From an uncultured Thermodesulfobacteriota bacterium (GTDB lineage: Bacteria > Desulfobacterota > Anaeroferrophillalia > Anaeroferrophillales > Tharpellaceae): a stretch of 64,000 bases of DNA. The stretch covers positions 80,621 through 144,620 of the forward strand of contig CAYWGC010000002.1 of NCBI GenBank assembly GCA_964457755.1, read 5' to 3'. Below the pieces are notes generated by a model. That model saw nothing but the letters and a program-made list of their open reading frames with translations, did no database searches and had not been told where the DNA came from. Positions 6,091 through 59,860 of this stretch are shown piece by piece (within the stretch, counting starts at the first letter, position 1; the number at the start of each line of letters is the position of its first letter). The translations under genes were made by a program, and so were the position numbers.

Positions 6091-7986
6091 TTAACCTTCA
6101 TCCTTTGATAAACGTTTTGTGCCTTGGGTAGTGGGCAAAGCCCACTTTAGTTTGTCAAGATAAAACTCTATTGCTTGTCGGGCAATTGGCGCAGCTGTTG
6201 AACCGCCATGACCACCATGTTCAATTAGAACTGCAATAGCAATCTCAGGGTCGCTGTAAGGGGCAAAAGCGGCAAACCAGGCGTGGTCACGAAAACGCCA
6301 AGGGATCTCTTTAGACCCTTTTAAATCCTCAAGGGTCTGTTTGACAACCTGGGCGGTACCGGTTTTTCCAGCCATCTCCCACCCTTCGGTGGTGATCCGC
6401 GATTTAAAAGCAGTTCCACGTTTGTCATTAACCACTTGCCAGAGAGCTTTACGTATGGCCTGCATATGGGGATCGCTTATTTCGACCCGGGTGCCATCGT
6501 TTTTTGTAGAGGTTTTATGGCGCTTGTCTGAAGTTGGTTGAGCGTTCTTATCTTTAACCAGGTGCGGTTTGTAGTAGATGCCTCCATTGGCGAATACTGT
6601 ATACATGGCGGCGATCTGTAGCGGGGTAGTTGTCAGATAACCCTGGCCGATGCAAACTGAAATTGTATCGCCTGTATACCATTGATCATGAACGTTTTTC
6701 AACTTCCATGACGAACTTGGTAAAAGTCCGCTTTTCTCTTCCTGAAGTTCGATGCCGCTGAGATGACCGAGACCGAAGTTGGACCCGTAGGCAGCAATTC
6801 GATCGATCGGAATTCTGGTTGCGAGATTATAATAATAGACGTCACAGGACTCTTTCAGTGAACGGTAGAGATCGACATGGCCGTGACCATAGCGGTTCCA
6901 GCAGCGAAAATTGCTGCGGCCCAGAGTCATGGAACCGTTACAGGAAAATGATGTTTGCGGGGTTATCACCTGATCAGTAAGGGCGACAGCAGCGATCAAT
7001 GGTTTGATCGTGGAGCCGGGGGGATAACGTCCCTGGATTGGGCGATTTTGTAGAGGGTGCAGGGGGTCGCTGTTGATTGTTTGCCAATCTTTAGTGGAGA
7101 TTCGTGTCGCAAAAAGATTGTTGGAGAATGACGGAGTGCTGACCAGGGCCAGAATCTCACCGTTTTTAGGATTAATGGCAACTACGCTTCCGACTTCTGC
7201 ACCCAGCAGATCGAAAGCATGTTGTTGGAGGTCGATATCTATGGTCAATTCCAGGTTTTTTCCAGATTGGGCCGGTATTGTGGTGTAGGAGGATAGTTCC
7301 CGGCCGCGAGCGTTGACTTCGACTTGGCGTTGGCCGTCCTGACCGCGTAAATATTCCTGGTAACCTGCTTCGATGCCGGAGCGCCCGACAAGATCGTCCC
7401 GGGCATAACTTTTATAAGCCTGTAACCCCAGTTCTCGATCATTGATAAATCCCAGATAACCAATAACATGCGAGCATATTTCATCGTACGGATACTCCCG
7501 TATGGGCTCAGTTTCGATGAGAATGCCCGGTAGTTCAAATTTTCGGGATTCGACTCGGGCCAGCTCATTGGGACAGAGATTTTTTTTTAAGGTGATTGGC
7601 CGATGACGGGCACTGCGGGGAGTTTTATTGTATAGAGTTACAATTGTTTCAGTTTTGAGATCATCGATTTGGGTGGCCAGAAGTTCAGCGACATTTTCAA
7701 TTTCATCAATATTCTCAGGGATTAGCTGCAGGTTGAAAGCCAGAGAATTGTCGGCTAGGATTTCCCGGTTTCGATCTGTGATAATGCCTCTTAAAGCCCG
7801 GATTCGTCTGGTTCTTATACGGTTATCTTGTGATTTTTGATTATAATACTCGCCTTGAACTATTTGGATGTACCAAAGCCGGAGAGTTAGGCAAGAGACT
7901 ATTATTGCCATAGCGATCATGATTATGCGTCCATTGACGGCAATCTGTTCGCGTTTATTTTTTTTACTGTTATCTACATTAGCCAT
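6091..7986 (-). CDS. mrdA: Penicillin-binding protein 2 (peptidoglycan D,D-transpeptidase MrdA)
   Basis: N-terminal membrane anchor, PBP dimerisation domain, transpeptidase STIK (…PGSTIKP…), SxN and KTG(T) motifs (…AGKTGTAQ…). Synteny mreBCD-mrdA-rodA. Confidence 0.9.
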   Translation of the reverse strand: MANVDNSKKNKREQIAVNGRIIMIAMAIIVSCLTLRLWYIQIVQGEYYNQKSQDNRIRTRRIRALRGIITDRNREILADNSLAFNLQLIPENIDEIENVAELLATQIDDLKTETIVTLYNKTPRSARHRPITLKKNLCPNELARVESRKFELPGILIETEPIREYPYDEICSHVIGYLGFINDRELGLQAYKSYARDDLVGRSGIEAGYQEYLRGQDGQRQVEVNARGRELSSYTTIPAQSGKNLELTIDIDLQQHAFDLLGAEVGSVVAINPKNGEILALVSTPSFSNNLFATRISTKDWQTINSDPLHPLQNRPIQGRYPPGSTIKPLIAAVALTDQVITPQTSFSCNGSMTLGRSNFRCWNRYGHGHVDLYRSLKESCDVYYYNLATRIPIDRIAAYGSNFGLGHLSGIELQEEKSGLLPSSSWKLKNVHDQWYTGDTISVCIGQGYLTTTPLQIAAMYTVFANGGIYYKPHLVKDKNAQPTSDKRHKTSTKNDGTRVEISDPHMQAIRKALWQVVNDKRGTAFKSRITTEGWEMAGKTGTAQVVKQTLEDLKGSKEIPWRFRDHAWFAAFAPYSDPEIAIAVLIEHGGHGGSTAAPIARQAIEFYLDKLKWALPTTQGTKRLSKDEG

Positions 7987-8004
7987 AAAAAGAGAGTTGA
8001 CAAA

Positions 8005-8520
8005 TTAGGCGGAGAGAATGTTGGGGTTGCTGGGAATGTAGCGAGCCTGAAGAGTATTCAGGCAAAAGAGGATAGGGATCGCAAATATAGTTGTTGTAAT
8101 GATCCCGCCGAAGGCTTTTAAGATGAGGTTGGAAAAGTCAGGAGAGCCGATTGCAATCCCGAGAAAAATGGTCAGGAGAAGTTTGCAGGTGCCGGCGAAA
8201 AGTGCTTGAGGGAAGATGTGGTTCATGAAAACAGTGCGGTTAAGATGGCATCCGGCAAAGAATATGGCGAGGTGTAAAATTGGTTGTATGATACCTGGAG
8301 AGCTGCTGAATAGAGATGTCGTCAGGGAAATTCCAGCAGCAGCCAATAAACAGCGTAGGCCTAGTGGTCGAGAGGTTAGGAAGACTATGAGTACGAGGTT
8401 TAGGTCTGGAGTGAAGCCCGCCGGGATCCCAAGATTTGGGAAGAAACTTGATTCAATCGCTTTTAGAATGAACGCTAAAAAGGTGAAAAATAGTGGTGAA
8501 AAGAGGGTCAGGGTAGGCAT
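8005..8520 (-). CDS. mreD: Rod shape-determining protein MreD
   Basis: Small polytopic membrane protein placed between mreC and mrdA. Confidence 0.7.
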   Translation of the reverse strand: MPTLTLFSPLFFTFLAFILKAIESSFFPNLGIPAGFTPDLNLVLIVFLTSRPLGLRCLLAAAGISLTTSLFSSSPGIIQPILHLAIFFAGCHLNRTVFMNHIFPQALFAGTCKLLLTIFLGIAIGSPDFSNLILKAFGGIITTTIFAIPILFCLNTLQARYIPSNPNILSA

Positions 8521-8524
8521 CGGT

Positions 8525-9358
8525 TTAGGACGTTTTCCGTGAAGGTATTATATAAACCTCTTCAATAGTGTTGAGATCGAATGTTGGTTTTACTTTGATC
8601 TGTTGGCTGAGGCCGTTAGGGTCTTGTTCAGTTTTAACGACAGTACCGACCGTTATGCCTTTGGGGAACATGTTATCAAGGCCTGAGGTGATCAGCGTGT
8701 CGCCGACTTTGACATCGGCGGTACGCTGGAGATGGGCCAGTTCGCAGAGGTCGCTGCCTGTGCCTTGCAGGGTTCCACGAATACGGTTTCTTTGAATTAT
8801 AACGTCGCAAGCGCTATTTTGATCAACGAGTAGGAGGACTTTGGCAGATTGTGGTCCGCAGGCGATGATGCGGCCGATAACTCCGCCTGGTGTAAATACT
8901 GGGTTATTGATTTTGAGACCTTGACGGGATCCACAATCAATTATAAAAATTTGTGAGAGGCTATCAGTTTGCCGGCCAATAATGTGAGCTGCCAGACCTT
9001 GCTCCAGGGTGTCGTGCTGTTTTTTGAAGTTAAGCAGCTGATGCAGACGCTGGTTTTCGATACGAGCTTCTTCAAATTGGGCCAGGCGATGTTTCATGAG
9101 ATCAAGATCTTTTTTTAATTTGGCATTGTTCTTTTTGGTGCCGACCAGGCTGATGTAGTTGTCAAAAATGTTACTACTGGTAGCAAAGGTCCAGTTAATA
9201 GACTTTTGGATAGGGTAGGTCATCGTCAAAGCTGCACGTTCAGCAATGCTGATAAGGCTACCTCCTTTTTGCAGGCCAAAGCTTACACAGAGGGTGGAAA
9301 AAATAAAAATTAATACCAAGCTTAAGAACCAGGGTAGGCGGTGGCTTAACGTGGTCAT
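8525..9358 (-). CDS. mreC: Rod shape-determining protein MreC
   Basis: N-terminal membrane anchor, coiled-coil region, C-terminal beta domains typical of MreC. Position after mreB. Confidence 0.85.
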   Translation of the reverse strand: MTTLSHRLPWFLSLVLIFIFSTLCVSFGLQKGGSLISIAERAALTMTYPIQKSINWTFATSSNIFDNYISLVGTKKNNAKLKKDLDLMKHRLAQFEEARIENQRLHQLLNFKKQHDTLEQGLAAHIIGRQTDSLSQIFIIDCGSRQGLKINNPVFTPGGVIGRIIACGPQSAKVLLLVDQNSACDVIIQRNRIRGTLQGTGSDLCELAHLQRTADVKVGDTLITSGLDNMFPKGITVGTVVKTEQDPNGLSQQIKVKPTFDLNTIEEVYIIPSRKTS

Positions 9359-10899: not shown

Positions 10900-12306
10900 A
10901 TGAATTCATTAAAGCTTCCAGACGAGTTTTGGCTGGAAGATAGTGGCCAGAGTGATGATTACGATGAGACTCGGCATATCTACAGTGTCTCCCAGCTTAA
11001 CGGTGATATCCGTCTGGTTATCGAGGATAACTTCACCCCGGTCTGGGTCGAGGGTGAGATCTCAAGCCTTCGCACCCCGGCTTCAGGACATGTCTATTTT
11101 ACCCTCAAGGATGATCGCTCTCAGCTGAAAGCGGTATTCTTTCGGCGTCAACAAAGGACTTTGCCATACCAGCCGCAAGAGGGAGATCGGGTTTTGTGCA
11201 ATGGGCGTATCAGCCTTTATGAGCCCCGGGGAGAATATCAGATAATTGTCTCCACTATAGAGCTCCAGGGTATGGGTGGTTTGTGGCGAGCCTTTACTCA
11301 ACTTAAAGAAAAATTGATGCGTGAAGGATTGTTCGATACGGATCGAAAAAAAAAGATTCCCTTGTTACCTCGTACTTTGGCTCTGATAACTTCGGCCACA
11401 GGGGCTGCAGTTCACGATATCCTGCAGGTGATCCGCCGCCGTTTTGCCGGGGTTGAAATTATGGTTGTGCCGGTAATGGTTCAAGGTGAACGGGCGGCTA
11501 CTGAAATTGTGGCGGCTTTGGATCTCGTCAGCCACTACTGGCGAGATCGTATAGATACGGTTATTCTGACTCGAGGTGGTGGTTCTTATGAAGATCTGCA
11601 GCCTTTTAATGATGAACGGGTGGCCCGAGCGATTGCGGCCTGTGCAATCCCCTTGATCAGTGCCGTAGGCCATGAGATTGATTTTACAATTGCCGATTTC
11701 GTGGCTGATCTCAGGGCACCGACCCCTTCAGCTGCGGCTGAGTTAGTGATTGCCAACCAGAGTGAAATGGTTGATCGTCTGCACCATCTCAGGCAGCGTC
11801 TTCAGCAGATCGGGCGTTATCGGATAACTCAGGAACGCCGCCGGCTGCAGATGTTGGGCTTGGCTCTGGATCGGGGGAGCGAGGCCGTTTTGCTTCGCCG
11901 TCAGGACTTTATAGAGTTGAAAATCCGTTTTCGGACGGCAATGCTCTCGCGTTTGCGCTTGGTTCGGGAAAATTTAAAAATTCATGAACTTCGTCTCGGT
12001 CAGGTGTCACCGCTGGTTCGTATAAAGCCACTTGCTTATGAAATAAACTCGCAGGAGCAGCGATTTGGTCAGGCAATACGACATCTTTTGGCTGGCAAAA
12101 GACAGTCAATTACAGCTCAGAGTGATCGACTAAAAGCCGCTAGTCCTTTGGCAGTTTTAGCTCGGGGCTATACAGTTGTTGAAAAAGTCGATAATCATCA
12201 GGTGGTCAGCAAAAGTGATGATCTCGTTGTGGGGGAGCAACTGCGCCTCCGCCTGCATCAGGGTGGGGCCGTGTGTAGGGTTGAGGCAGTGATGAATGAT
12301 GAATGA
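10900..12306 (+). CDS. xseA: Exodeoxyribonuclease VII large subunit
   Basis: OB-fold N-terminus (…VWVEGEISSLR…ASGHVYFTLKD…) followed by the ExoVII catalytic region; 468 aa. Confidence 0.93.
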   Translation: MNSLKLPDEFWLEDSGQSDDYDETRHIYSVSQLNGDIRLVIEDNFTPVWVEGEISSLRTPASGHVYFTLKDDRSQLKAVFFRRQQRTLPYQPQEGDRVLCNGRISLYEPRGEYQIIVSTIELQGMGGLWRAFTQLKEKLMREGLFDTDRKKKIPLLPRTLALITSATGAAVHDILQVIRRRFAGVEIMVVPVMVQGERAATEIVAALDLVSHYWRDRIDTVILTRGGGSYEDLQPFNDERVARAIAACAIPLISAVGHEIDFTIADFVADLRAPTPSAAAELVIANQSEMVDRLHHLRQRLQQIGRYRITQERRRLQMLGLALDRGSEAVLLRRQDFIELKIRFRTAMLSRLRLVRENLKIHELRLGQVSPLVRIKPLAYEINSQEQRFGQAIRHLLAGKRQSITAQSDRLKAASPLAVLARGYTVVEKVDNHQVVSKSDDLVVGEQLRLRLHQGGAVCRVEAVMNDE

Positions 12307-51152: not shown

Positions 51153-52196
51153 ATGAGCAAAAATCAGAGAGTAGTCTTAGGTTTTAGTGGCGGGGTTGAT
51201 AGTGCAGCGGCCGCTATTTTACTGCAGCGCCAAGGATACCAAGTAGTTCCGGTCGTCCTTGATATGGGTGGGGCAGATACTTCATTTCTGTTGCAGAGGG
51301 CTGCAAAGATGGCAAAGCATCTTGGGTTAGATTTGCTGGTTGAGTCGGCAGCCGATACTTTTGCCCAGGAAGTGATTGAATATCTGCTTTTTGCCTATAC
51401 TCATGCGCAAACCCCGAATCCCTGTATTCGCTGTAATGCTCGGGTTAAATTTGCCCGGTTGGCGGCGGTGGCCGACCGTCTAGGAATTGAAAAAATGGCT
51501 ACCGGGCACTATTTTAAAAAACTTTCCGGAGTTTCAGACAGCCCGGAAATTTCCTACCATAAAGCTTATGACAAGCGTAAAAATCAGAGTTATTTTCTCT
51601 TTGCAGTGCCGGAATTGTTATTGCGGCGCACTCTTTTTCCATTGGGTGGAATGAGTAAGAGTGAGGCCCTGATTTTGGCAGATGCAGCGGGTTATGAACT
51701 TGATAATTATCGTGAGAGCCAGGAGCTCTGTTTTCTCAACGGCGAAAAATATCAAGAGTATCTGGCCCGGCGGGGAGTGATGGGTGGTCACGGTGAGATT
51801 GTCAATTGTCAGGGGCGTGTAATGGGTAAGCATAACGGTCTGCAAAACTACACGATTGGCCAACGCCGCGGTATGGGGATTGCGCATCCTGAACCCCTCT
51901 ATGTTCTGAAACTTGATTATCCACATAACCGTTTACTGGTTGGTGAGCGGGATGAGGCCTATGGTTGCAATCTAAAAGTGGATAAAATCAACTGGCTGAT
52001 TGAACCACCATCTCAACCTCTTAATATTGAGTGCCAAATTCGTTATCGCCACCAACCAGCCCCGGCTCTTCTGACTCCGCTTTCCGATGGCCGGTTCGAG
52101 ATTGAATTCGAGTCTCCTCAGTTTGCCATAACTCCGGGCCAAGGAGCTGCTTTTTATAATGGAGAGCAGCTGTTAGGCGGTGGTATTATCATATGA
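51153..52196 (+). CDS. mnmA: tRNA-specific 2-thiouridylase
   Basis: PP-loop SGGxDS (…GFSGGVDSAAAA…), catalytic Cys residues, C-terminal beta-barrel. Confidence 0.93.
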   Translation: MSKNQRVVLGFSGGVDSAAAAILLQRQGYQVVPVVLDMGGADTSFLLQRAAKMAKHLGLDLLVESAADTFAQEVIEYLLFAYTHAQTPNPCIRCNARVKFARLAAVADRLGIEKMATGHYFKKLSGVSDSPEISYHKAYDKRKNQSYFLFAVPELLLRRTLFPLGGMSKSEALILADAAGYELDNYRESQELCFLNGEKYQEYLARRGVMGGHGEIVNCQGRVMGKHNGLQNYTIGQRRGMGIAHPEPLYVLKLDYPHNRLLVGERDEAYGCNLKVDKINWLIEPPSQPLNIECQIRYRHQPAPALLTPLSDGRFEIEFESPQFAITPGQGAAFYNGEQLLGGGIII

Positions 52197-52219
52197 GTCG
52201 TGATTATATGGAGGTTGAG

Positions 52220-54340
52220 ATGAAGAAAATAATCACTTCGGTTTTATGGATCATAATTACTCTCCTTTGTTATAGTGAAGCCAACGCTTTCATCGTTGAT
52301 CATCAATGTACGGATAGTAGCAAAATTCCTGTTGCATGGTTGCAGGCAGCCAGAAACAATCTGCGCATGGGCTATTCTCATACATCTCATGGCAGTCAGT
52401 TGATCAGCGGCATAAACGCATTTCGTGGTAGTGAAGGTTCGAGATATTATTTCACCAGTTCCGGTTGGGGGGCCGTAAGCGGAGTTTTTATAAATGATTA
52501 CTGGGCGAATGATGGGGCCGGAGACCTTGGTCATAATGGTGACTTGAGTTGGGTGACTGCAACTGAAACCATGCTTGATAATCCTGCCAATGACCGGAAT
52601 GTGGTGATGTGGTCATGGTGTGGCGGCGTTAGCGATAACACTGCAAGCGGTATCGATATATACTTAAATGCCATGAACCGCCTTGAACAACTCTATCCTC
52701 AGGTTTCTTTCATCTACATGACCGGTCATCTGGATGGCGGTGGAGTGGTGGGTAATTTGCATCAGATGAATGAGCGCATTCGCAATTACTGCCAAGATCA
52801 CAATAAGATACTTTTTGATTTTGCCGACATTGAAAGTTATGATCCCGATGGTGCAATCAACTATATGCAACTTAATGCCAATGATAATTGTGATTATAAC
52901 AGTAATGGCAACAATCGAAATTGGGCCCGTGAATGGCTTTCTGCTAATCCGGCCAGCACCTTGGCAGTGGAGGCCGAGAGTTGTGGGGGCTGCGCTCATT
53001 CACAATATTTAAACTGCGTTCTTAAAGGCCGGGCCTTTTGGTGGATGATGGCCCGTATTGCCGGTTGGGAGCCTGGCATTCCAGATCCTCCGGTTACGCT
53101 CTCAAAACTCTATTACCCGCATGTGGTCAGTGGGGATGGAGTTTGGGGAACCGAGATATGCGTACTCAATCCCAATAGTAATCAGACAGTTAATGGGATT
53201 TTTAAGGCCTTCGCTAATGACGGCCGAGCGGTTTCTGACAATCTAATTTTAAGCCTTGCTCCGCAGGCTCGTCGAGTAATAAACATCGCCACGCAATTTA
53301 GAGACCCTCAAAGTATTGGCTATATTGTTCTAGAAAGTGATTCCGAGAATCTTACCGGATATATGAAATTTTTTATCAACGGAGTCTGTCGGGTTGCCAT
53401 ACCCGTGGTCTCTCAGCTTAATTCAGGAGCTGTACCAATCTCTCATATTGCTTCAGATCAGTACTGGTGGACCGGTATAAGTTTGCTTAATACGACACTA
53501 TCGGAAAAAATATTGTCCATATATTTCAATAATGGAGTGCTGAAAAACGTAACACTCAGTGCTGGAGAACATCGGGCTTTTTCGATAAAAAGTCTGTTTG
53601 ATAACACTCCTCAAGCAGATATCAATTCTGCGATAATAGAGGGCATGACCGGAGTCATTGGTTTGGAACTTTTCAGCAATTCTAACCAGTTAAGCGGCAT
53701 ATTGTTAAGTGATAAGAGCTCTACTGAAATCTGTTACCCTCATGTCGTCGATGACCTGCAGTGGTGGACGGGGATTGTGGCATACAATCCATTTGATATG
53801 GAATCTATTTTGACAATTTCACCCTTTACTGGAGACGGTTCACCATTACCGCTTAAGACGGCAACACTTTTACCATTTTCAAAGTACTGGGGGTCTGTGA
53901 GTTCGCTTGCTTTAGCGTCGGAAACTGCCTGGTTTAAGGTTGAAAGCACCACTGGGATTTCCGGCTTTGAGCTTTTTGGCAGCAATGATAGTCAGCGTCT
54001 GGCCGGCTACTCCGGGGTTGCGATCAGTGGAACTGACGGCGTTTTGGCTAATCTTGAAGAAGATGGTTGGTCAGGTATCGCATTGGTCAATATCAGAGCA
54101 ACCTCGGTAACCGTTCAACTTAAAGCATATGATGATTCTGGCGCTCTTATTGCGACTAAATCAATAGATCTCAAAGCTTACGAGAAAAAAGTGGAAGTTG
54201 CCTCCACATTTTTCAGCACCAGTATCGCCGGCGCCACTTACATTACCTACACCGTGGAAGGTGATGGTGAATTGGTTGCTTTCCAGCTCAACAATAGCAG
54301 TGACAACACCATGCTTGATGCCTTACCAGCTATCAGATAG
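52220..54340 (+). CDS. Large secreted hypothetical protein: ~240-aa N-terminal domain of unknown function followed by several ~100-aa repeats with the conserved motif …[YN]PH[VI]…W(W)TG[IV]…N…
   Basis: Signal peptide (MKKIITSVLWIIITLLCYSEANA) after a GGAGG RBS. Internal repeats seen directly (YPHVVSGDGVWGTEICVLNP… / YPHVVDDLQWWTGIVAYNP… / YWWTGISLLN…). It is paralogous to the ORF at 59135. Confidence 0.5.
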   Translation: MKKIITSVLWIIITLLCYSEANAFIVDHQCTDSSKIPVAWLQAARNNLRMGYSHTSHGSQLISGINAFRGSEGSRYYFTSSGWGAVSGVFINDYWANDGAGDLGHNGDLSWVTATETMLDNPANDRNVVMWSWCGGVSDNTASGIDIYLNAMNRLEQLYPQVSFIYMTGHLDGGGVVGNLHQMNERIRNYCQDHNKILFDFADIESYDPDGAINYMQLNANDNCDYNSNGNNRNWAREWLSANPASTLAVEAESCGGCAHSQYLNCVLKGRAFWWMMARIAGWEPGIPDPPVTLSKLYYPHVVSGDGVWGTEICVLNPNSNQTVNGIFKAFANDGRAVSDNLILSLAPQARRVINIATQFRDPQSIGYIVLESDSENLTGYMKFFINGVCRVAIPVVSQLNSGAVPISHIASDQYWWTGISLLNTTLSEKILSIYFNNGVLKNVTLSAGEHRAFSIKSLFDNTPQADINSAIIEGMTGVIGLELFSNSNQLSGILLSDKSSTEICYPHVVDDLQWWTGIVAYNPFDMESILTISPFTGDGSPLPLKTATLLPFSKYWGSVSSLALASETAWFKVESTTGISGFELFGSNDSQRLAGYSGVAISGTDGVLANLEEDGWSGIALVNIRATSVTVQLKAYDDSGALIATKSIDLKAYEKKVEVASTFFSTSIAGATYITYTVEGDGELVAFQLNNSSDNTMLDALPAIR

Positions 54341-54493
54341 TGCTATGAGAAAACCCACACAAGGGAATTTGCTTAATTGTTTAATTTACTGGGTGCAATA
54401 AAAAATAATTAAAAAGAATATTTTCATTGCTTTAGAATGTTAAAAGAATTTATATGAATATAAATGAATAACAGATGGCGGGGAGGTTTCCAG

Positions 54494-54754
54494 ATGTCAA
54501 AAGTAGTGACCCTTAGACTTTCAGATGAAGAATATAATCTCTATGCAAAAGCCGCTAAAGTTGTCAAACGGCCGATATCCAACCTGATTAACTACCTGGC
54601 ACAACAACAGCTTGAAGAGAGTATTTTTATTGACCAGATAGAGATGGATGAGATTATTGGGAACCCAACTTTGCTTGAATCCCTGAAACAGGGTTCCATC
54701 GATGCAGAACTCAATCAAGGATCGTTTGTTGATGTATATGATATTCGAGACTAA
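54494..54754 (+). CDS. Type II antitoxin (ribbon-helix-helix/RelB-DinJ-like)
   Basis: 86-aa protein, N-terminal …VVTLRLSDEEYNLYAKAAK… RHH-like. Its stop overlaps the downstream RelE/ParE-like toxin. GGGGAGG RBS. Confidence 0.6.
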   Translation: MSKVVTLRLSDEEYNLYAKAAKVVKRPISNLINYLAQQQLEESIFIDQIEMDEIIGNPTLLESLKQGSIDAELNQGSFVDVYDIRD

Positions 54755-55004
54755 AACTTTTTTGAAGTCGCTTGAGCAAGTTTTTGGTGGACAACAGGGA
54801 AAAATTAAAAAGAAACTCCGGGGATATGTTTACCAGCAACTAAAAATCTCACCGGCGTTTGGCTCTAATATTAAAAAGCTCCGAGATTGGGATCCTCCCA
54901 CTTGGAGATACAGAATAAGCTCTTACCGATTCTTTTATCAAATTGATGAAAATCAGAAAATTGTCTCTATGATCCTGGCTGAACATCGTGGTAAGGCTTA
55001 TTAA
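54732..55004 (+). CDS. RelE/ParE-family type II toxin (mRNA interferase-like)
   Basis: ~90 aa; C-terminal …YRISSYRFFYQIDENQKIVSMILAEHRGKAY is typical of RelE/ParE. Its start overlaps the antitoxin's last codons. Confidence 0.7.
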   Translation: MYMIFETKTFLKSLEQVFGGQQGKIKKKLRGYVYQQLKISPAFGSNIKKLRDWDPPTWRYRISSYRFFYQIDENQKIVSMILAEHRGKAY

Positions 55005-55069
55005 GGCATAATGGTTGATTTGACACCGACCCCAATTCTACTCACTATGACAAACGAAAGGGAAAATGA

Positions 55070-55231
55070 ATGACTAATGGTAAAAACAACGGAGCGAACC
55101 TTGGCTTCGAAAACAAATTATGGGGAATGACCGACAAAATACGCGGTCATATGGACGCTGACGAATTGCGTGTTCTCAGTGTTGAGAAGTTGGTTGACGG
55201 ATTAAACCTTAATGGGGTTCACAATGGCTAG
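55070..55231 (+). pseudogene. hsdM: 5' remnant of a type I restriction-modification methyltransferase gene (hsdM N-terminal ~30 codons, then divergent sequence and a stop)
   Basis: MTNGKNNGANLGFENKLWGMTDKIRGHMDA… matches the widely conserved HsdM N-terminus (…LGFE.KLW.AADKLRG.MDA.EYK…). Homology is lost after ~aa 30, and the ORF stops at codon 54, overlapping the ATPase start. Confidence 0.6.
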
Positions 55232-56219
55232 AGCTGACTTGCTAACCGCTCTCGTCAAATTTGGAATGGCTGACGACAAGATCCGGTTCCAAAAAGTTGT
55301 CGAGTCGATCATCGCAGAAGAGCGAGCGAAGAAACACACAGTGTTGGCCGAGAAGCTGGAAGATCTGTTGCGCTCGATTCCTGTAGCGAAACCAGTTTCT
55401 AACGGAACCGCCATATTGGATCATCGGGTCAGTAATTTCGTCCGAGAAGTGATACCAGAGCGGAAACTCGACGATCTTATATTGCCATCGGAAGTACTTG
55501 AGATAGTGCGGGAAGTTGTTCAAGAGTACCATCGAATTGACCTGCTTCGATCATACAATTTGGAACCTCGCAATCGAGTACTGCTCATCGGTCCACCAGG
55601 AAACGGTAAGACGTCTCTGGCTGAAGCCATTGCTGAATCGTTGATGGTACCGTTACTTGTCGTTCGGTACGATGGTGTGGTGGGCACCTACCTTGGTGAA
55701 ACTGCCGTTCGTTTGCGAAGGTTGATGGAATATGCCGCCACACGGAAATGTGTTCTGTTCCTTGATGAGTTTGAGACGTTAGGCAAGGAGCGGGGCGACA
55801 CTCACGAAACCGGGGAAATAAAACGAGTCGTCAGTTCCTTGCTTCTACAGATTGACTCGCTGCCCAGCCACGTGGTCGTGGTTGGAGCCACCAATCACGC
55901 AGAGCTTCTCGACCGGGCTGTCTGGCGACGGTTTCAAGTTCGTATGGTTTTGCCCGAACCGACTCGTGCGAGACTGGCCGATTGGTTTGCAAGGTTTGAA
56001 CGTAGGATCAATGTGCCACTGGGATATGCACCAGAGACATTAGCGAAGAAGCTCCAAGGTGTGAATTTTGCCGAAGCTGAGGAATTCGGGGCGAGTGTGT
56101 TTCGCAAGTACGTACTCGAACAACCTGATTCAGACATGAAATCGATTGTTAATCGTACGTTGAAGACCTGGTCAGCACGTTCGGCCAAAACGAAACAGCA
56201 AAACGGGGGCAAAGACTAA
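55212..56219 (+). CDS. Classical AAA-family ATPase (single AAA domain, short N-terminal helical region); first gene of a two-gene ATPase-peptidase operon
   Basis: Walker A LLIGPPGNGKTSLAEAIA, Walker B VLFLDEFETL, sensor-1 …VVVGATNHAELLD…, Arg-finger region …AVWRRFQ…. Alternative start at ATG 55224. Its stop overlaps the next gene's start (TAATG). Confidence 0.85.
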   Translation: MGFTMARADLLTALVKFGMADDKIRFQKVVESIIAEERAKKHTVLAEKLEDLLRSIPVAKPVSNGTAILDHRVSNFVREVIPERKLDDLILPSEVLEIVREVVQEYHRIDLLRSYNLEPRNRVLLIGPPGNGKTSLAEAIAESLMVPLLVVRYDGVVGTYLGETAVRLRRLMEYAATRKCVLFLDEFETLGKERGDTHETGEIKRVVSSLLLQIDSLPSHVVVVGATNHAELLDRAVWRRFQVRMVLPEPTRARLADWFARFERRINVPLGYAPETLAKKLQGVNFAEAEEFGASVFRKYVLEQPDSDMKSIVNRTLKTWSARSAKTKQQNGGKD

Positions 56220-58798
56220 TGCCGGTTCGACCATTATTGCTATTTCCCGCTCCCGAACTTGCAGAAAAGGGTAATTTGCCCCAAGGTTTTAGACGGACTC
56301 ATAAACCTTCGCATGGCAGGCAAGGAGAGAGGGTGTCTCCCATCTTCGCTCAACTTCAGGCGGCATTCGATGCGCGGCAAGTCGAACTACAGAAAACGGC
56401 TGCCGGTGTAGAGCCAGAACAGGTTTTGGTGATTGAAACCATCGGTAACATCGAGGATTTTGCCAATGCTGTTCGTCGGATTGAAGGGCTTGAATGGATG
56501 GGGGAAATTGAAGTTGAGGAGATTACACCGGATGAGGATTTCTATGACGAGAAAAAACCGGAAAAAGAATTAAGTGGTCGTCTCTATCTGGTCATGACAA
56601 ATCAGCAGGCATTGCGAGAACTGCTTTCATTGTGGAATCGCTATAAAAATGATGAGAACATGACCTTTGATCGTGGCTTTGCCAAGTTTCGCGACGTGTT
56701 TCTCTGCCTTAATGATATTCGGCGTTGGGATGTGCAAGACCGCCTCGCTGAAACCGGTGTGTTGGATGTTTGGCGTGAGGATATGGAGCATTTTCCCGAT
56801 CAGCCGGTTCGAGGTGAAATCGAACTGTGGTTTCGCAATTCTGAAAGCAAGCGGCAAGACGCGGAGCTTCAGCTCACTTTATTGATTGAGGTGCTTGGTG
56901 GAAGAGTTTTGAGCCAATGTGTTCTTAGCGATATTGCCTATCACTCGATCTTGGCCGAATTGCCGAGGCAAGTTGCACAACAGGTGATGGATCACTCGAG
57001 TGTAGAGTTGGTCAAATGCGACAGCGTCATGTTCTTCAGGCCAGTAGGCCAAATGGCGACGGGCAAGTCACCGGTTGAAGGTGACCTGACGGATTTTGAA
57101 GTTTCTGAGGATCAAGAACGGCCATCCGGTGATCCGGTTGTTGCTATTTTTGACGGGCTTCCTTTGACCAATCACAGGTTGTTAGCAGATCGTTTAGTAA
57201 TCGATGATCCAGACGATTTCGCCTCGTATTACACTGTGGCCGATCGTGTGCATGGGACTGCAATGAGTTCGCTTGTCGTTCAAGGTGATTTAAGCAACGG
57301 GGAAAACCCGTTGGCTCGGCCTGTCTATGTTCGCCCGATCATGAAACCCATCGATTGGCATCGGTCTCCTCGTCCCGAGTATATCCCAGCAGATGTGCTT
57401 GTTGTTGATCTTATTCACCGCGCGGTTCGTCGCATGTACGAGGGTGATGGTGCGGGTGATGCGGCGGCGCCTGGCATTCGAATCATCAACCTGTCGATAG
57501 GCGACTCGAGCCGTCAATTTACGCAAGCCATGAGCCCCCTCGCACGACTCTTGGATTGGTTGAGTGTAAAATACAAGGTGCTCTTTGTCATCAGTGTGGG
57601 AAACTACCCTGATGACATTGACACCGGGATTTCGGTAGATGACTTTAATGATCTTGGCGATCAAGATCTCGAAGAGCTCAGTGTCAAGAAGCTATACGAG
57701 AACGCACGCCATCGGAGCCTACTCTCTCCCGCCGAGAGCATCAACGGCATCACGGTAGGTGCGCTGCACCGTGATGATTCTACTGTGAGCCATAGCGGAG
57801 ACACCATCAACCTGTTTGAAAATGCTCTTCCAAGTCCGGTGTCTGCATTTGGCAGCGGATACCGCCGCTCCGTAAAACCTGATTTAATCTGCCATGGTGG
57901 CCGAGTTTTTTACAATCGACCTATAGGCACGAATGCCAACGCCATTCTCAAATCCCGCCATCTTCGAATAGCGCCGGGCAACGAAGTTGCGTCACCGAGT
58001 AGCCATCCTGGCGACTTAAACAAGACTGCGTATTGTTGCGGAACCAGCAATTCGGCTGCGCTTATAAGTCGAGCGTTGTCTATTTGTCACGACTCGTTGT
58101 TGGATATATTCAATGAGCAAGCGCCTGACATTGAATTCACCACGTATATTGCCCCCTTGCTCAAGGCGATGATTGTACATGGATGTTCGTGGGATGATAT
58201 TGGGGAACGCCTTCAACAAATACTGCAAACTGCTGACAATGGTCGCCAAATCCGCAATTGGATAAGCAGATGGCTTGGGTATGGGGTTCCAGATTATTCG
58301 AGGGTTTTAGATTGTACGGAACAACGGACATCAATACTCGGGTTTGGGCAACTCAATGATGGAGAGGCCCATGTGTTTAGTCTGCCACTTCCGCCGTCAT
58401 TGGCCGCTCGACGTGACAGGCGTAGACTAACCGTGACATTGGCGTATTTGTCGCAAGTCGCCTCAAGCACCCAACGATATCGAATTGCCAACCTATGGTT
58501 CGAAATCGAAGGCGTTGCTTTGGCTTCCGGCAGACAAGATGCCGAGTGGCGTACAGTTAGACGTGGAACCGTTCAACATGAAGTATTTGAAGACGATAGA
58601 GCGGTCCCATTCAGCGACGGTGATACTTTGACAATTAAAGTCAACTGTCGAAAGGACGCACGTCGAATGGAAGAGCCGACTACTTATGGATTGGCAGTAT
58701 CACTCGAAGTAGCGGAGGGCATTGATATACCCATTTATAACGAGGTACGTACTCGAATAGCAACTGCTATTGAGATTCGAGCTAGAGAAGGGCTGTAG
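56219..58798 (+). CDS. Intracellular S8-family serine peptidase (subtilase) with an unrecognised ~300-aa N-terminal domain; second gene of the ATPase-peptidase operon
   Basis: Complete subtilase catalytic elements in order: Asp (…VVAIFDGLPLTNH…), His (…VHGTAMSSLVV…), oxyanion Asn (…IINLSIGDS…), Ser (…YCCGTSNSAALISRA…). No signal peptide; 859 aa. Confidence 0.85.
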   Translation: MPVRPLLLFPAPELAEKGNLPQGFRRTHKPSHGRQGERVSPIFAQLQAAFDARQVELQKTAAGVEPEQVLVIETIGNIEDFANAVRRIEGLEWMGEIEVEEITPDEDFYDEKKPEKELSGRLYLVMTNQQALRELLSLWNRYKNDENMTFDRGFAKFRDVFLCLNDIRRWDVQDRLAETGVLDVWREDMEHFPDQPVRGEIELWFRNSESKRQDAELQLTLLIEVLGGRVLSQCVLSDIAYHSILAELPRQVAQQVMDHSSVELVKCDSVMFFRPVGQMATGKSPVEGDLTDFEVSEDQERPSGDPVVAIFDGLPLTNHRLLADRLVIDDPDDFASYYTVADRVHGTAMSSLVVQGDLSNGENPLARPVYVRPIMKPIDWHRSPRPEYIPADVLVVDLIHRAVRRMYEGDGAGDAAAPGIRIINLSIGDSSRQFTQAMSPLARLLDWLSVKYKVLFVISVGNYPDDIDTGISVDDFNDLGDQDLEELSVKKLYENARHRSLLSPAESINGITVGALHRDDSTVSHSGDTINLFENALPSPVSAFGSGYRRSVKPDLICHGGRVFYNRPIGTNANAILKSRHLRIAPGNEVASPSSHPGDLNKTAYCCGTSNSAALISRALSICHDSLLDIFNEQAPDIEFTTYIAPLLKAMIVHGCSWDDIGERLQQILQTADNGRQIRNWISRWLGYGVPDYSRVLDCTEQRTSILGFGQLNDGEAHVFSLPLPPSLAARRDRRRLTVTLAYLSQVASSTQRYRIANLWFEIEGVALASGRQDAEWRTVRRGTVQHEVFEDDRAVPFSDGDTLTIKVNCRKDARRMEEPTTYGLAVSLEVAEGIDIPIYNEVRTRIATAIEIRAREGL

Positions 58799-59134
58799 AA
58801 ATGAACCATCTCAACGAAGCAAAAATATGACCATGGTGTGCTTTGAGAATTTCACTACATTGAATATGGATCGGACGTTGCTTTTGATGGCTCGAGCACA
58901 GAAAGTAATGCGGAAGCAGATTATATCGACATTGTTCTCATCGGATGCTCACCGAGAGCTCTGAACTTGTGCTCGAATAGGCGACGGTTGCTTTGTAAGG
59001 AATGTGCAGTAGAGTTAATGAAACCGCTCAACAAAGCGCTGTACTGATCGGTTGTTCCGCTACGCTCCATTGCCGTCAATGAGCCTGCTCGTTATTTACC
59101 CAACCAATGGCAAAGTTTACGCCGGATACAATAC

Positions 59135-59860
59135 ATGGGTGTTTGGGCAAATACTGGTTCTGCCCGAACTGGAACAGTGACGATAGGCGGTATTTTAAGT
59201 GATACATTTAAGGTGTCACAGGAAGCTGCACCTGGAACTTATAGCTATGAATATTTTTCACCATATTACTCTTCTTCAGAAGTTGACTGGACTGGTGTTG
59301 CCTTAAGTAATGCTAGTTATGATCATGAGGCTTCTATAGAGGTTGTAGTTCGTGGTATGAATGGAGACCTTTTAAGACAGATTTATAAAAATCTTCCAGC
59401 CAGTGGCAAAACAACTTTAGTAGTAGATGATTTAAGTTCCGGATGGTTGCATGTTAGATCAGATCAACCTTTGTCCGGCCTTGTCTTTCTAGGTCGTGGC
59501 CTGTATATGGCTGATATTCCTTTTGTTGACAATCTCGAACAAAATCTTGTTATCCCCCATATTGCTCAGGATGATGATTGGGATACGACTCTTATGATCT
59601 GTAACCCACAGACCAGCAGCGTTAATGTAAATGTAATAAATGTTAACGATCAAGGGCTAATAGTGGCTCTGAGAAACTTAACACTTGCGGCTAAAGGCAG
59701 CGGTTGTTTTCTGTTAAGTGATCTTTTTGGGTCTCAAGCTCTAACCGGTAAAATATATCTTCATGCAACTTCAGGAATATCTGCTTTTGCGCTTTATAAC
59801 AATGTGAAGAGCGGCGGCAGCTGGTTTGCCGGTATCAATGCTACACTATTAACTGATTAA
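59135..59860 (+). CDS. Repeat-domain protein fragment paralogous to the C-terminal repeats of the 52220..54340 protein; lacks a signal peptide (possibly 5'-truncated)
   Basis: …NLVIPHIAQDDDWDTTLMICNP… and …ISAFALYNN… align with …YPHVVDDLQWWTGIVAYNP… / …ISGFELFGSN… of the upstream paralogue. An in-frame stop lies at 59078. Confidence 0.45.
   Translation: MGVWANTGSARTGTVTIGGILSDTFKVSQEAAPGTYSYEYFSPYYSSSEVDWTGVALSNASYDHEASIEVVVRGMNGDLLRQIYKNLPASGKTTLVVDDLSSGWLHVRSDQPLSGLVFLGRGLYMADIPFVDNLEQNLVIPHIAQDDDWDTTLMICNPQTSSVNVNVINVNDQGLIVALRNLTLAAKGSGCFLLSDLFGSQALTGKIYLHATSGISAFALYNNVKSGGSWFAGINATLLTD

Follow-up and report, generated by a model that had tools for sequence, protein, structure and literature searches.

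What is a 53-codon open reading frame (ORF) with the N-terminus of a type I restriction–modification (R-M) methyltransferase doing directly in front of an intact defense gene pair? The ORF lies at 55070–55231 (+) of a 64,000-nt stretch of DNA from an uncultured Thermodesulfobacteriota bacterium (assembly GCA_964457755.1, contig CAYWGC010000002.1, positions 80,621–144,620 of the forward strand), here called the window, and is followed by ietA and ietS, which encode the ATPase and the S8-family protease of the IetAS system. Its product, MTNGKNNGANLGFENKLWGMTDKIRGHMDADELRVLSVEKLVDGLNLNGVHNG, is exactly that described in a first-pass annotation, which took the ORF for the decayed 5′ end of the methyltransferase gene hsdM at an R-M locus disrupted by, or recombined with, the ATPase–S8 cassette. 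Comparison with related loci points to a different order of events: the locus very probably reads hsdM′::hsdS′-ietA-ietS-hsdR′ and is the deletion scar of a type I R-M operon in which IetAS was embedded.

Composition of the 53-codon ORF

The 30 first codons of the ORF, including the start codon and upstream ribosome-binding region, were assigned to hsdM (hsdM′, 55070–55159, +) by PADLOC, phmmer, tblastn and nucleotide identity. Amino acids 9–36 matched positions 4–31 of the PADLOC MTase_I profile (E = 6.3e-7), and identity to real HsdM N-termini was 62–83% over the ~30 first residues of the ORF. In a phmmer search of 5.8 billion proteins, HsdM_N-bearing proteins matched amino acids ~3–31 at 66–83% identity (E = 9e-9 to 1e-5), and the full-length HsdM proteins of three intact operons introduced below (L013, L014 and L015) hit the ORF in tblastn against the whole window with E values of 3e-10, 1.5e-8 and 4.6e-6, respectively. 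At the nucleotide level, hsdM of locus L009 is 79% identical to 55081–55166 (86 nt) and the similarity stops at 55166, in line with the end near 55160 that had been proposed. The HsdM_N helix region (…NLGFE..LW..AD.LRG.MD..EYKHVVLGLIFLKY…) is present for the ~30 first residues only, the motif ending before EYKHVVLGL. With these scores the claimed HsdM resemblance is significant, and it marks a former type I R-M locus.

Judged from these comparisons, the 53-aa ORF is a gene fragment and no methyltransferase. With four HsdM proteins as tblastn queries, no match to the N6_Mtase catalytic domain (AdoMet-binding and NPPF motifs) turned up in the whole window. A Pfam search of the ORF product matched nothing, HsdM_N included, because the fragment is too short. 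That blank result and the very small size of the ORF would favor a spurious intergenic frame with a chance or low-complexity resemblance to HsdM, a reading to which we give next to no probability in view of the PADLOC, phmmer and tblastn matches above, the 79% nucleotide identity to a real hsdM, and the hsdS and hsdR stubs that follow in the expected order. The ORF also does not behave as a conserved stand-alone short gene, as no homolog spanning the whole 53-aa product was found among the 5.8 billion proteins beyond the ORF itself. A search of metagenomes with a degenerate hsdM′ peptide pattern, seeking an intact parent, returned only the unrelated, already known L009 contig; P0002/L009 is a fragmented hsdM.

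The remainder of the ORF was read against intact operons. A scan with one genome per species yielded 37 further IetA loci, onto which Hsd proteins were mapped by tblastn. The gene order hsdM-hsdS-ietA-ietS-hsdR was found in L013 (a Chlorobium metagenome-assembled genome, MAG), L014 (a Myxococcales MAG) and L015 (a Desulfobulbus MAG). By Pfam, the hsd genes of L013 carry N6_Mtase (E = 1e-107), HsdM_N, Methylase_S, HSDR_N, SWI2_SNF2 and T1RH-like_C, and its HsdS matches PADLOC Specificity_I with E = 8e-91. In all three operons, hsdS ends in ...SGELRVPDAE.L...LNINGG.HG followed by the stop and overlaps the ietA start. The termini of L013 (...LRDTLLPKLISGELRVPDAEALLYELNINGGQHG) and L014 (...RLISDELCVPNTKEVLDDLNIYGGQHG) have a stop codon that overlaps the ietA ATG as ATGGCTAG, and hsdS of L015 reads ...SGEIRIPEAEKLVEDLDRNGGGNG... 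and stops 14 nt beyond the ietA ATG, hence overlapping ietA too. Other genes are found in these operons as well: a RhuM-family gene (PADLOC PDC-S05) sits between ietS and hsdR in L013 (11663–12679), an ORF6N-domain gene between hsdM and hsdS in L015 (5540–6523), and a BstXI-like restriction endonuclease ORF splits hsdS in L014 (3271–4470).

The first-pass annotation had seen no recognizable similarity past ~codon 30. That stretch is the C-terminus of HsdS, and on the alignments the ORF is HsdM(1–30) joined in frame to the last 23 HsdS residues. The hsdS′ part (55160–55231, +), comprising the final 23 codons and stop of a type I specificity gene, was identified by alignment to HsdS C-termini, a shuffle test and tblastn. 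Across the junction the window reads HMDA and then DELRVLSVEKLVDGLNLNGVHNG up to the stop; these amino acids 31–53 align ungapped and co-linearly to the HsdS C-termini of L013, L014 and L015 (shuffle tests, p ≤ 1e-4, 5e-5 and 1.5e-4, respectively), and tblastn matched the tail with HsdS of L013 (E = 0.003) and L015 (E = 0.022). They contain the conserved HsdS C-terminal helix and tail (…LLPKLISGELRVPDAEKLV…), which runs to the stop of the gene. The rest of an HsdS, with two target-recognition domains (Methylase_S) and the conserved helices that separate them, is absent: the Methylase_S and Specificity_I profiles gave no match, and tblastn finds HsdS similarity only at the tail.

Both edges of hsdS′ are informative. 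At its 3′ edge, the frame does overlap the start of the ATPase gene as had been described: the TAG stop (55229–55231) and the ietA start (ATG 55224) overlap as ATGGCTAG, identically in the window, L013 and L014, and the ietA ribosome-binding site, GGAG, lies inside the hsdS′ stretch, 7–8 nt upstream of the ATG. At its 5′ edge, the junction falls within 55157–55166, at a shared GAA-T microhomology, both parents being expected to read G-N-N-GAA-T.

The hsdR stub and the descent of the locus

The suggestion to look downstream of the cassette for hsdS or hsdR remnants proved fruitful. There, ~55 decayed 5′ codons of a type I restriction subunit gene (hsdR′, 58801–58966, +) were identified by tblastn with L014 HsdR and by frame-by-frame comparison. 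L014 HsdR aligns to 58859–58963 (IEYGSDVAFDGSSTESNAEADYIDIVLIGCSPRAL against IAHGPDIAFDGQAAERDEAANYTDVVLIGRLQSAL) with 48.6% identity over 35 aa (E = 6.9e-6 when the region is searched and 8.4e-5 for the whole window); the match covers amino acids 72–106 of an over-extended L014 ORF, the true positions being ~24–58. The hsdR′ ATG at 58801 lies 2 nt past the ietS stop, the same spacing as in L014. Read frame by frame, the stub gives MNHLNEAKI, then ..CFENF.. and then HYIEYGSDVAFDG... to ~58966, with at least two frameshifts and in-frame stops. Only the ~55 N-terminal codons are left, and intact HSDR_N nuclease, SF2 motor and C-terminal domains were not found in the window. The stub was detected only with HsdR of IetAS-linked operons as the query: with L008 Hsd proteins as the sole queries, tblastn did not find it and gave only a weak hsdM match. 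Beyond the hsdM′, hsdS′ and hsdR′ stubs, tblastn found no further hsd similarity within the 64 kb.

The positions of the three stubs bear on whether IetAS arrived at 55160 or was already there. The 23 codons before ietA are an HsdS tail in the same register, and with the same stop/start overlap, as in two of the three intact operons (L013 and L014); IetAS would therefore already have been an embedded operon member. From sequence comparison we propose with high confidence that the locus descends from hsdM-hsdS-ietA-ietS-hsdR by an internal hsdM–hsdS deletion and loss of most of hsdR, with IetAS as cargo and not as disruptor. The first-pass annotation had an incoming ATPase–S8 (IetAS) cassette strike, or recombine illegitimately with, a resident hsdM, with ~55160 as the insertion breakpoint. 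We consider that very unlikely, although IetAS is clearly mobile and its apparent ends look like those of a cassette. The closest IetA loci (seven metagenomic, by blastn) are 85–91% identical to the window in nucleotide sequence, and the homology starts exactly at 55184 in three further independent contexts (L002–4, L005–7 and L008) and ends at 58800–58803, 2–5 nt past the ietS stop (in L012 it spans 55199–58824). Taken alone, this boundary resembles a 3.6-kb mobile cassette beginning 24 nt downstream of the end of the HsdM similarity. Base composition also differs, with a GC content of 0.50 in IetAS, 0.46 in the window and 0.37 in the toxin–antitoxin stretch and intergenic DNA upstream (54341–55069).

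Three observations argue against insertion. The 24 nt at 55160–55183, together with the conserved 40-nt leader after them, make up the HsdS tail (ELRV...EKLV...LNxNGxxxG and the stop), matching intact hsdS-ietA junctions in both frame and register. Had the cassette simply inserted into hsdM, the remainder of that gene should follow it, but the stub found downstream is hsdR, in its L014 operon position. The common boundary at 55184 is accounted for by constraint on the region where ietA translation is initiated. As a mobile-element end, 55184 was rejected, diverged hsdS codons continuing upstream of it in other loci; the best interpretation is that selective constraint reaches no further, with the ietA ribosome-binding site (GGAG) and start region lying in the final 40 nt of hsdS. 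A sharp homology boundary need not mark the end of a mobile element, a point of relevance wherever such boundaries are used to infer ends. The recombination junction at ~55160 that had been proposed is thus real, but it marks an internal hsdM–hsdS deletion instead of a cassette/hsdM junction or insertion breakpoint. The notion of an R-M locus disrupted by the ATPase–S8 cassette does not stand, with IetAS resident in the operon and the HsdS tail and hsdR stub in operon order.

The following history would account for these features. From a five-gene ancestral operon, hsdM-hsdS-ietA-ietS-hsdR, one deletion of ~2.8 kb (a size judged from the L013 genes) would have removed hsdM from codon 31 onward and all of hsdS except its last 23 codons and stop, the ends being joined in frame at 55157–55166. 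A second loss would have taken hsdR beyond ~codon 55, and the leftover stub would later have gained frameshifts. The survivors upstream of ietA would be the hsdM 5′ end, with its start codon, ribosome-binding region and probably the operon promoter, and the hsdS 3′ end. Perhaps these stub ends were retained for the 5′ control region of the operon and for ietA translation initiation, such that IetAS can run as a stand-alone system; the 53-aa peptide itself is presumably functionless.

Several points weigh against this account. An intact parent operon at >90% nucleotide identity was not found, and the deletion end-points cannot be fixed base by base. Alone, the short stubs fall below every PADLOC and Pfam threshold for HsdS or HsdR (the isolated 27-aa hsdS tail, the hsdR′ frame piece and the 35-aa ORF of L012 described below gave no PADLOC match because they are too short), so the hsdS′ assignment rests on position and on alignment to three to five tails. 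A σ70 promoter scan of 55005–55069 found nothing convincing, so retention of the operon promoter is conjectural (a terminator scan of the same interval likewise gave nothing convincing). Two relatives whose IetA is 81% identical, L059 and L060, lack an hsdS tail; visible descent from an embedded copy is therefore not universal. Finally, the deletions may have occurred either in this genome or in a donor before transfer.

Decayed stubs at related IetAS loci

Debris of an hsdS tail lies directly upstream of ietA in all six distinct contexts whose IetA is 87–93% identical to that of the window, with differing lengths and defects. In the hsdS frame, L002–4 read ...ARIPDAEKLLDGLNMNGVHNG up to the stop, with another stop preceding it, and L005–7 read ...FPISEKLSDGLNINGDYNG and a stop. 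L008 reads ...ELPISHAEKLLDGIIINGVHNG and a stop, with more frameshifted LP.K codons upstream. L057/58 read GEIYLPETEKLLDGLTN, a stop, GVHNG and a second stop, and in L016 and L017 the hsdS tail is diverged or frameshifted. Among relatives with an IetA identity of 73–81%, the intact operon is present in three, debris in two and no hsdS tail in three (L018, L059 and L060). Together, the intact L013–L015 operons and the relatives with ever shorter hsdM, hsdS and hsdR stubs give a stepwise picture of an embedded cassette outliving its host R-M system.

A second fused ORF occurs in L012, a KSB1 MAG with an IetA of 91% identity. It is a 35-codon hsdM′::hsdS′ ORF of its own (MADEKNNSTNVNSENKLREMAYKLGG followed after the junction by LINIGVQNG and the stop), preceded by its own Shine–Dalgarno site, and combines the decayed remnant of an HsdM N-terminus (p ≤ 5e-5 in comparison with four HsdM N-termini) with the last ~10 hsdS codons at a junction unlike that of the window. 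Of the L012 hsdR, the first ~24 nt are left, with the ATG mutated to ATA. Unrelated in-frame HsdM-N::HsdS-C mini-ORFs of 80 and 59 aa were observed in L050–L053 (P0005) and L054 (P0011), respectively, and their stops each overlap by 4 nt the start of a following non-hsd gene. From these two loci, loss of the hsdM–hsdS interior ahead of embedded cargo may be recurrent. In P0005 the gene that follows is a Y1_Tnp-like 231-aa ORF and then comes a SWIM/PDC-S62 protein; in P0011 a 276-aa ORF is followed by DUF3800/PDC-M04A. An IS200/REP-type Y1 transposase-like ORF (MPQSLTQIYLHIIFSTKNRQPFL...) is likewise present in L012 (7054–7509), ~400 nt upstream of the hsdM′::hsdS′ stub.

Such mini-ORFs could be taken as functional and under selection, either as a translated leader that couples ribosomes to ietA at ATGGCTAG or as a small regulatory peptide. 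The in-frame fusion, the preserved hsdM start codon and Shine–Dalgarno region and the native hsdS/ietA overlap would fit this, as would the independently shaped L012 version, which is likewise open and in frame over 35 codons, and the 4-nt overlaps of the unrelated P0005 and P0011 mini-ORFs with the next gene. We nevertheless regard a selected leader as unlikely. ietA has its own GGAG site 7–8 nt upstream of its ATG, and in L002–4, L005–7, L008 and L057/58 the tails are stop-interrupted or have no start codon next to an intact IetAS; translational coupling is therefore dispensable. The L012 peptide has moved far from the HsdM consensus, as would not be expected had its sequence been under selection. 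An in-frame outcome has a chance of 1/3 per event, and P0005 and P0011 were found via protein sequence, which introduces ascertainment bias. L001, identical to the window over the ORF stretch, is not an independent case.

In some loci a complete R-M set follows IetAS. L008 (4320–9684), L016, L030 and L032 have a complete hsdM(-hsdS)-hsdR set after IetAS instead of before it; in L008, hsdM starts 55 nt past the IetAS unit, and the decayed hsdS tail remains upstream of ietA. This layout suggests tandem or replaced R-M systems at one hotspot. In the chromosome of Candidatus Haliotispira prima (L017), a scrap of 25 codons from an HsdS C-terminus, 76% identical to L008 HsdS, lies just past ietS (11608–11682), and a full hsdS lies ~0.9 kb upstream of ietA.

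IetAS, embedded defense genes and the flanks of the island

The cargo itself is complete. ietA (55224–56219, +) encodes the 331-aa AAA+ ATPase of IetAS (PADLOC IetA PDLC04232, E = 2.5e-149; Pfam AAA, E = 2e-29), and ietS (56219–58798, +) encodes the 859-aa S8 subtilase-family protease (PADLOC IetS PDLC04233, full length, E = 0; Pfam Peptidase_S8, E = 3.9e-13). Both proteins are full-length profile matches, and the adjacent genes overlap by one base. ATG 55224 was taken as the true ietA start because close homologs are all 331 aa. Exact look-ups of a 335-aa call of IetA, and of the toxin ORF of the window described below, returned no record. IetA homologs, uniformly of this length and with 75–93% amino acid identity, number in the thousands among metagenomic proteins and occur in MAGs of many phyla. 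Across L012–L017, IetA is 73–91% identical in MAGs of KSB1, Chlorobium, Myxococcales, Desulfobulbus, Pontiellaceae and a spirochaete. This distribution indicates, as far as sequence identity can tell, that the IetAS clade has spread horizontally very recently and across a wide range of hosts. That the ATPase–S8 pair is horizontally mobile, as had been proposed, is supported by its nucleotide identity of 85–91% to copies in unrelated contexts, and we accordingly treat IetAS as a mobile defense system. A scan of viral contigs gave two distant IetA loci only and was uninformative.

Two of the close loci deviate within the IetAS genes. L001, a 1,507-nt ENA contig corresponding to window positions 54577–56083, is 100% identical to the window over 54577–55606 and was for that reason rejected as evidence of ORF conservation. 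Beyond 55606, inside ietA, it carries 42 mismatches in 477 nt (8.8%; 34 synonymous and 8 non-synonymous), a pattern that represents either a homologous-recombination mosaic of IetA alleles or a chimeric metagenome assembly. In L005, ietS is shortened to 360 codons (7758–8840) and nucleotide homology to the window stops at 57226; PemK and NTP_transf_2/HEPN toxin–antitoxin genes follow downstream, and this IetAS copy is itself degraded.

IetAS was first described as a plasmid stability or toxin–antitoxin pair on the Agrobacterium Ti plasmid and was reportedly found by Gao and colleagues in 2020 to protect against phage. The ietA and ietS genes of the window match the profiles of that system over their full length; compared with IetAS generally, this clade is of the R-M-embedded kind, surrounded by R-M debris. 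A parallel is prrC, whose place within ecoprrI is between hsdS and hsdR. IetAS of L013–L015 likewise lies between hsdS and hsdR, with overlapping or 2-nt-spaced frames, and in the window this order survives only as a fossil. Embedding is on record for prrC, which sits inside ecoprrI (PMC12707154), and for tgvAB within the type I cluster of Vibrio cholerae VPI-2 (PMC11411939); the placement of IetAS in L013–L015 resembles the latter.

The 'guilt-by-embedding' study of Payne et al. 2024 catalogs embedded genes by the thousand, from BREX, DISARM and type I R-M systems. In Sup. Table 8 of that study a two-gene cassette, CAS_00044 (count 514), carries the decision 'Incorporate into IetAS model', so the embedding of IetAS-like cassettes is already on record. 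The high-numbered PDLC04232 and PDLC04233, the best PADLOC profiles for the window, may be the models added on that decision, by inference only. What sets the window apart from R-M operons with embedded defense genes is that the host R-M is gone and stubs alone remain. It is the same kind of object as ordinary hsd pseudogenes and deletion derivatives such as P0002/L009 and the P0005 and P0011 fusions, but all three hsd genes are cut, to 30, 23 and ~55 codons, and the cargo is intact and highly conserved. The locus is an ordinary, if unusually legible, deletion scar and a new example of a known phenomenon. For annotation, the label 'degraded type I R-M operon with embedded IetAS' replaces 'hypothetical 53-aa protein + IetAS', and 55160 no longer counts as an insertion breakpoint.

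Given how tightly hsdS is packed with ietA and ietS with hsdR, a PrrC-type functional link of IetAS to type I R-M merits testing. In its strongest form, IetAS would be a PrrC-like back-up, co-transcribed and translationally coupled with type I R-M and sensing its inhibition, and the recurrent hsdM′::hsdS′ mini-ORFs of the window, L012, P0005 and P0011 would be selected adaptor leaders. We find this combined proposal doubtful, and a literature search returned no paper that ties the activity of IetAS to type I R-M and none on the stub structure. If true, adaptor leaders that keep cargo expressed after R-M loss would constitute a general route to autonomy for embedded defense genes.

Upstream of the ORF lie a ribbon-helix-helix/DUF6290-type antitoxin candidate (54464–54754, +; Pfam DUF6290, E = 2e-4, and RHH_5, E = 0.017, neither reaching the curated cut-off) and a 90-aa ParE/RelE-type toxin candidate (54732–55004, +; gene call taken from L001; Pfam ParE_toxin, E = 1.5e-4, 22.7 bits where the cut-off is 23). 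No homologs of these genes were found near hsdM at any related locus. A repeat search for island ends or att-like flanking repeats gave chance-level matches only. The island is flanked by a 715-aa secreted-looking protein (52193–54340) and a 241-aa ORF (59135–59860), which have in common a weakly matching repeated module (LYYPHVVSGDGVWGTEICVLNPN and LVIPHIAQDDDWDTTLMICNPQ; E = 0.13). The 241-aa ORF is perhaps 5′-truncated: upstream of its ATG the frame stays free of stops for another ~30 codons, until one near 59043.

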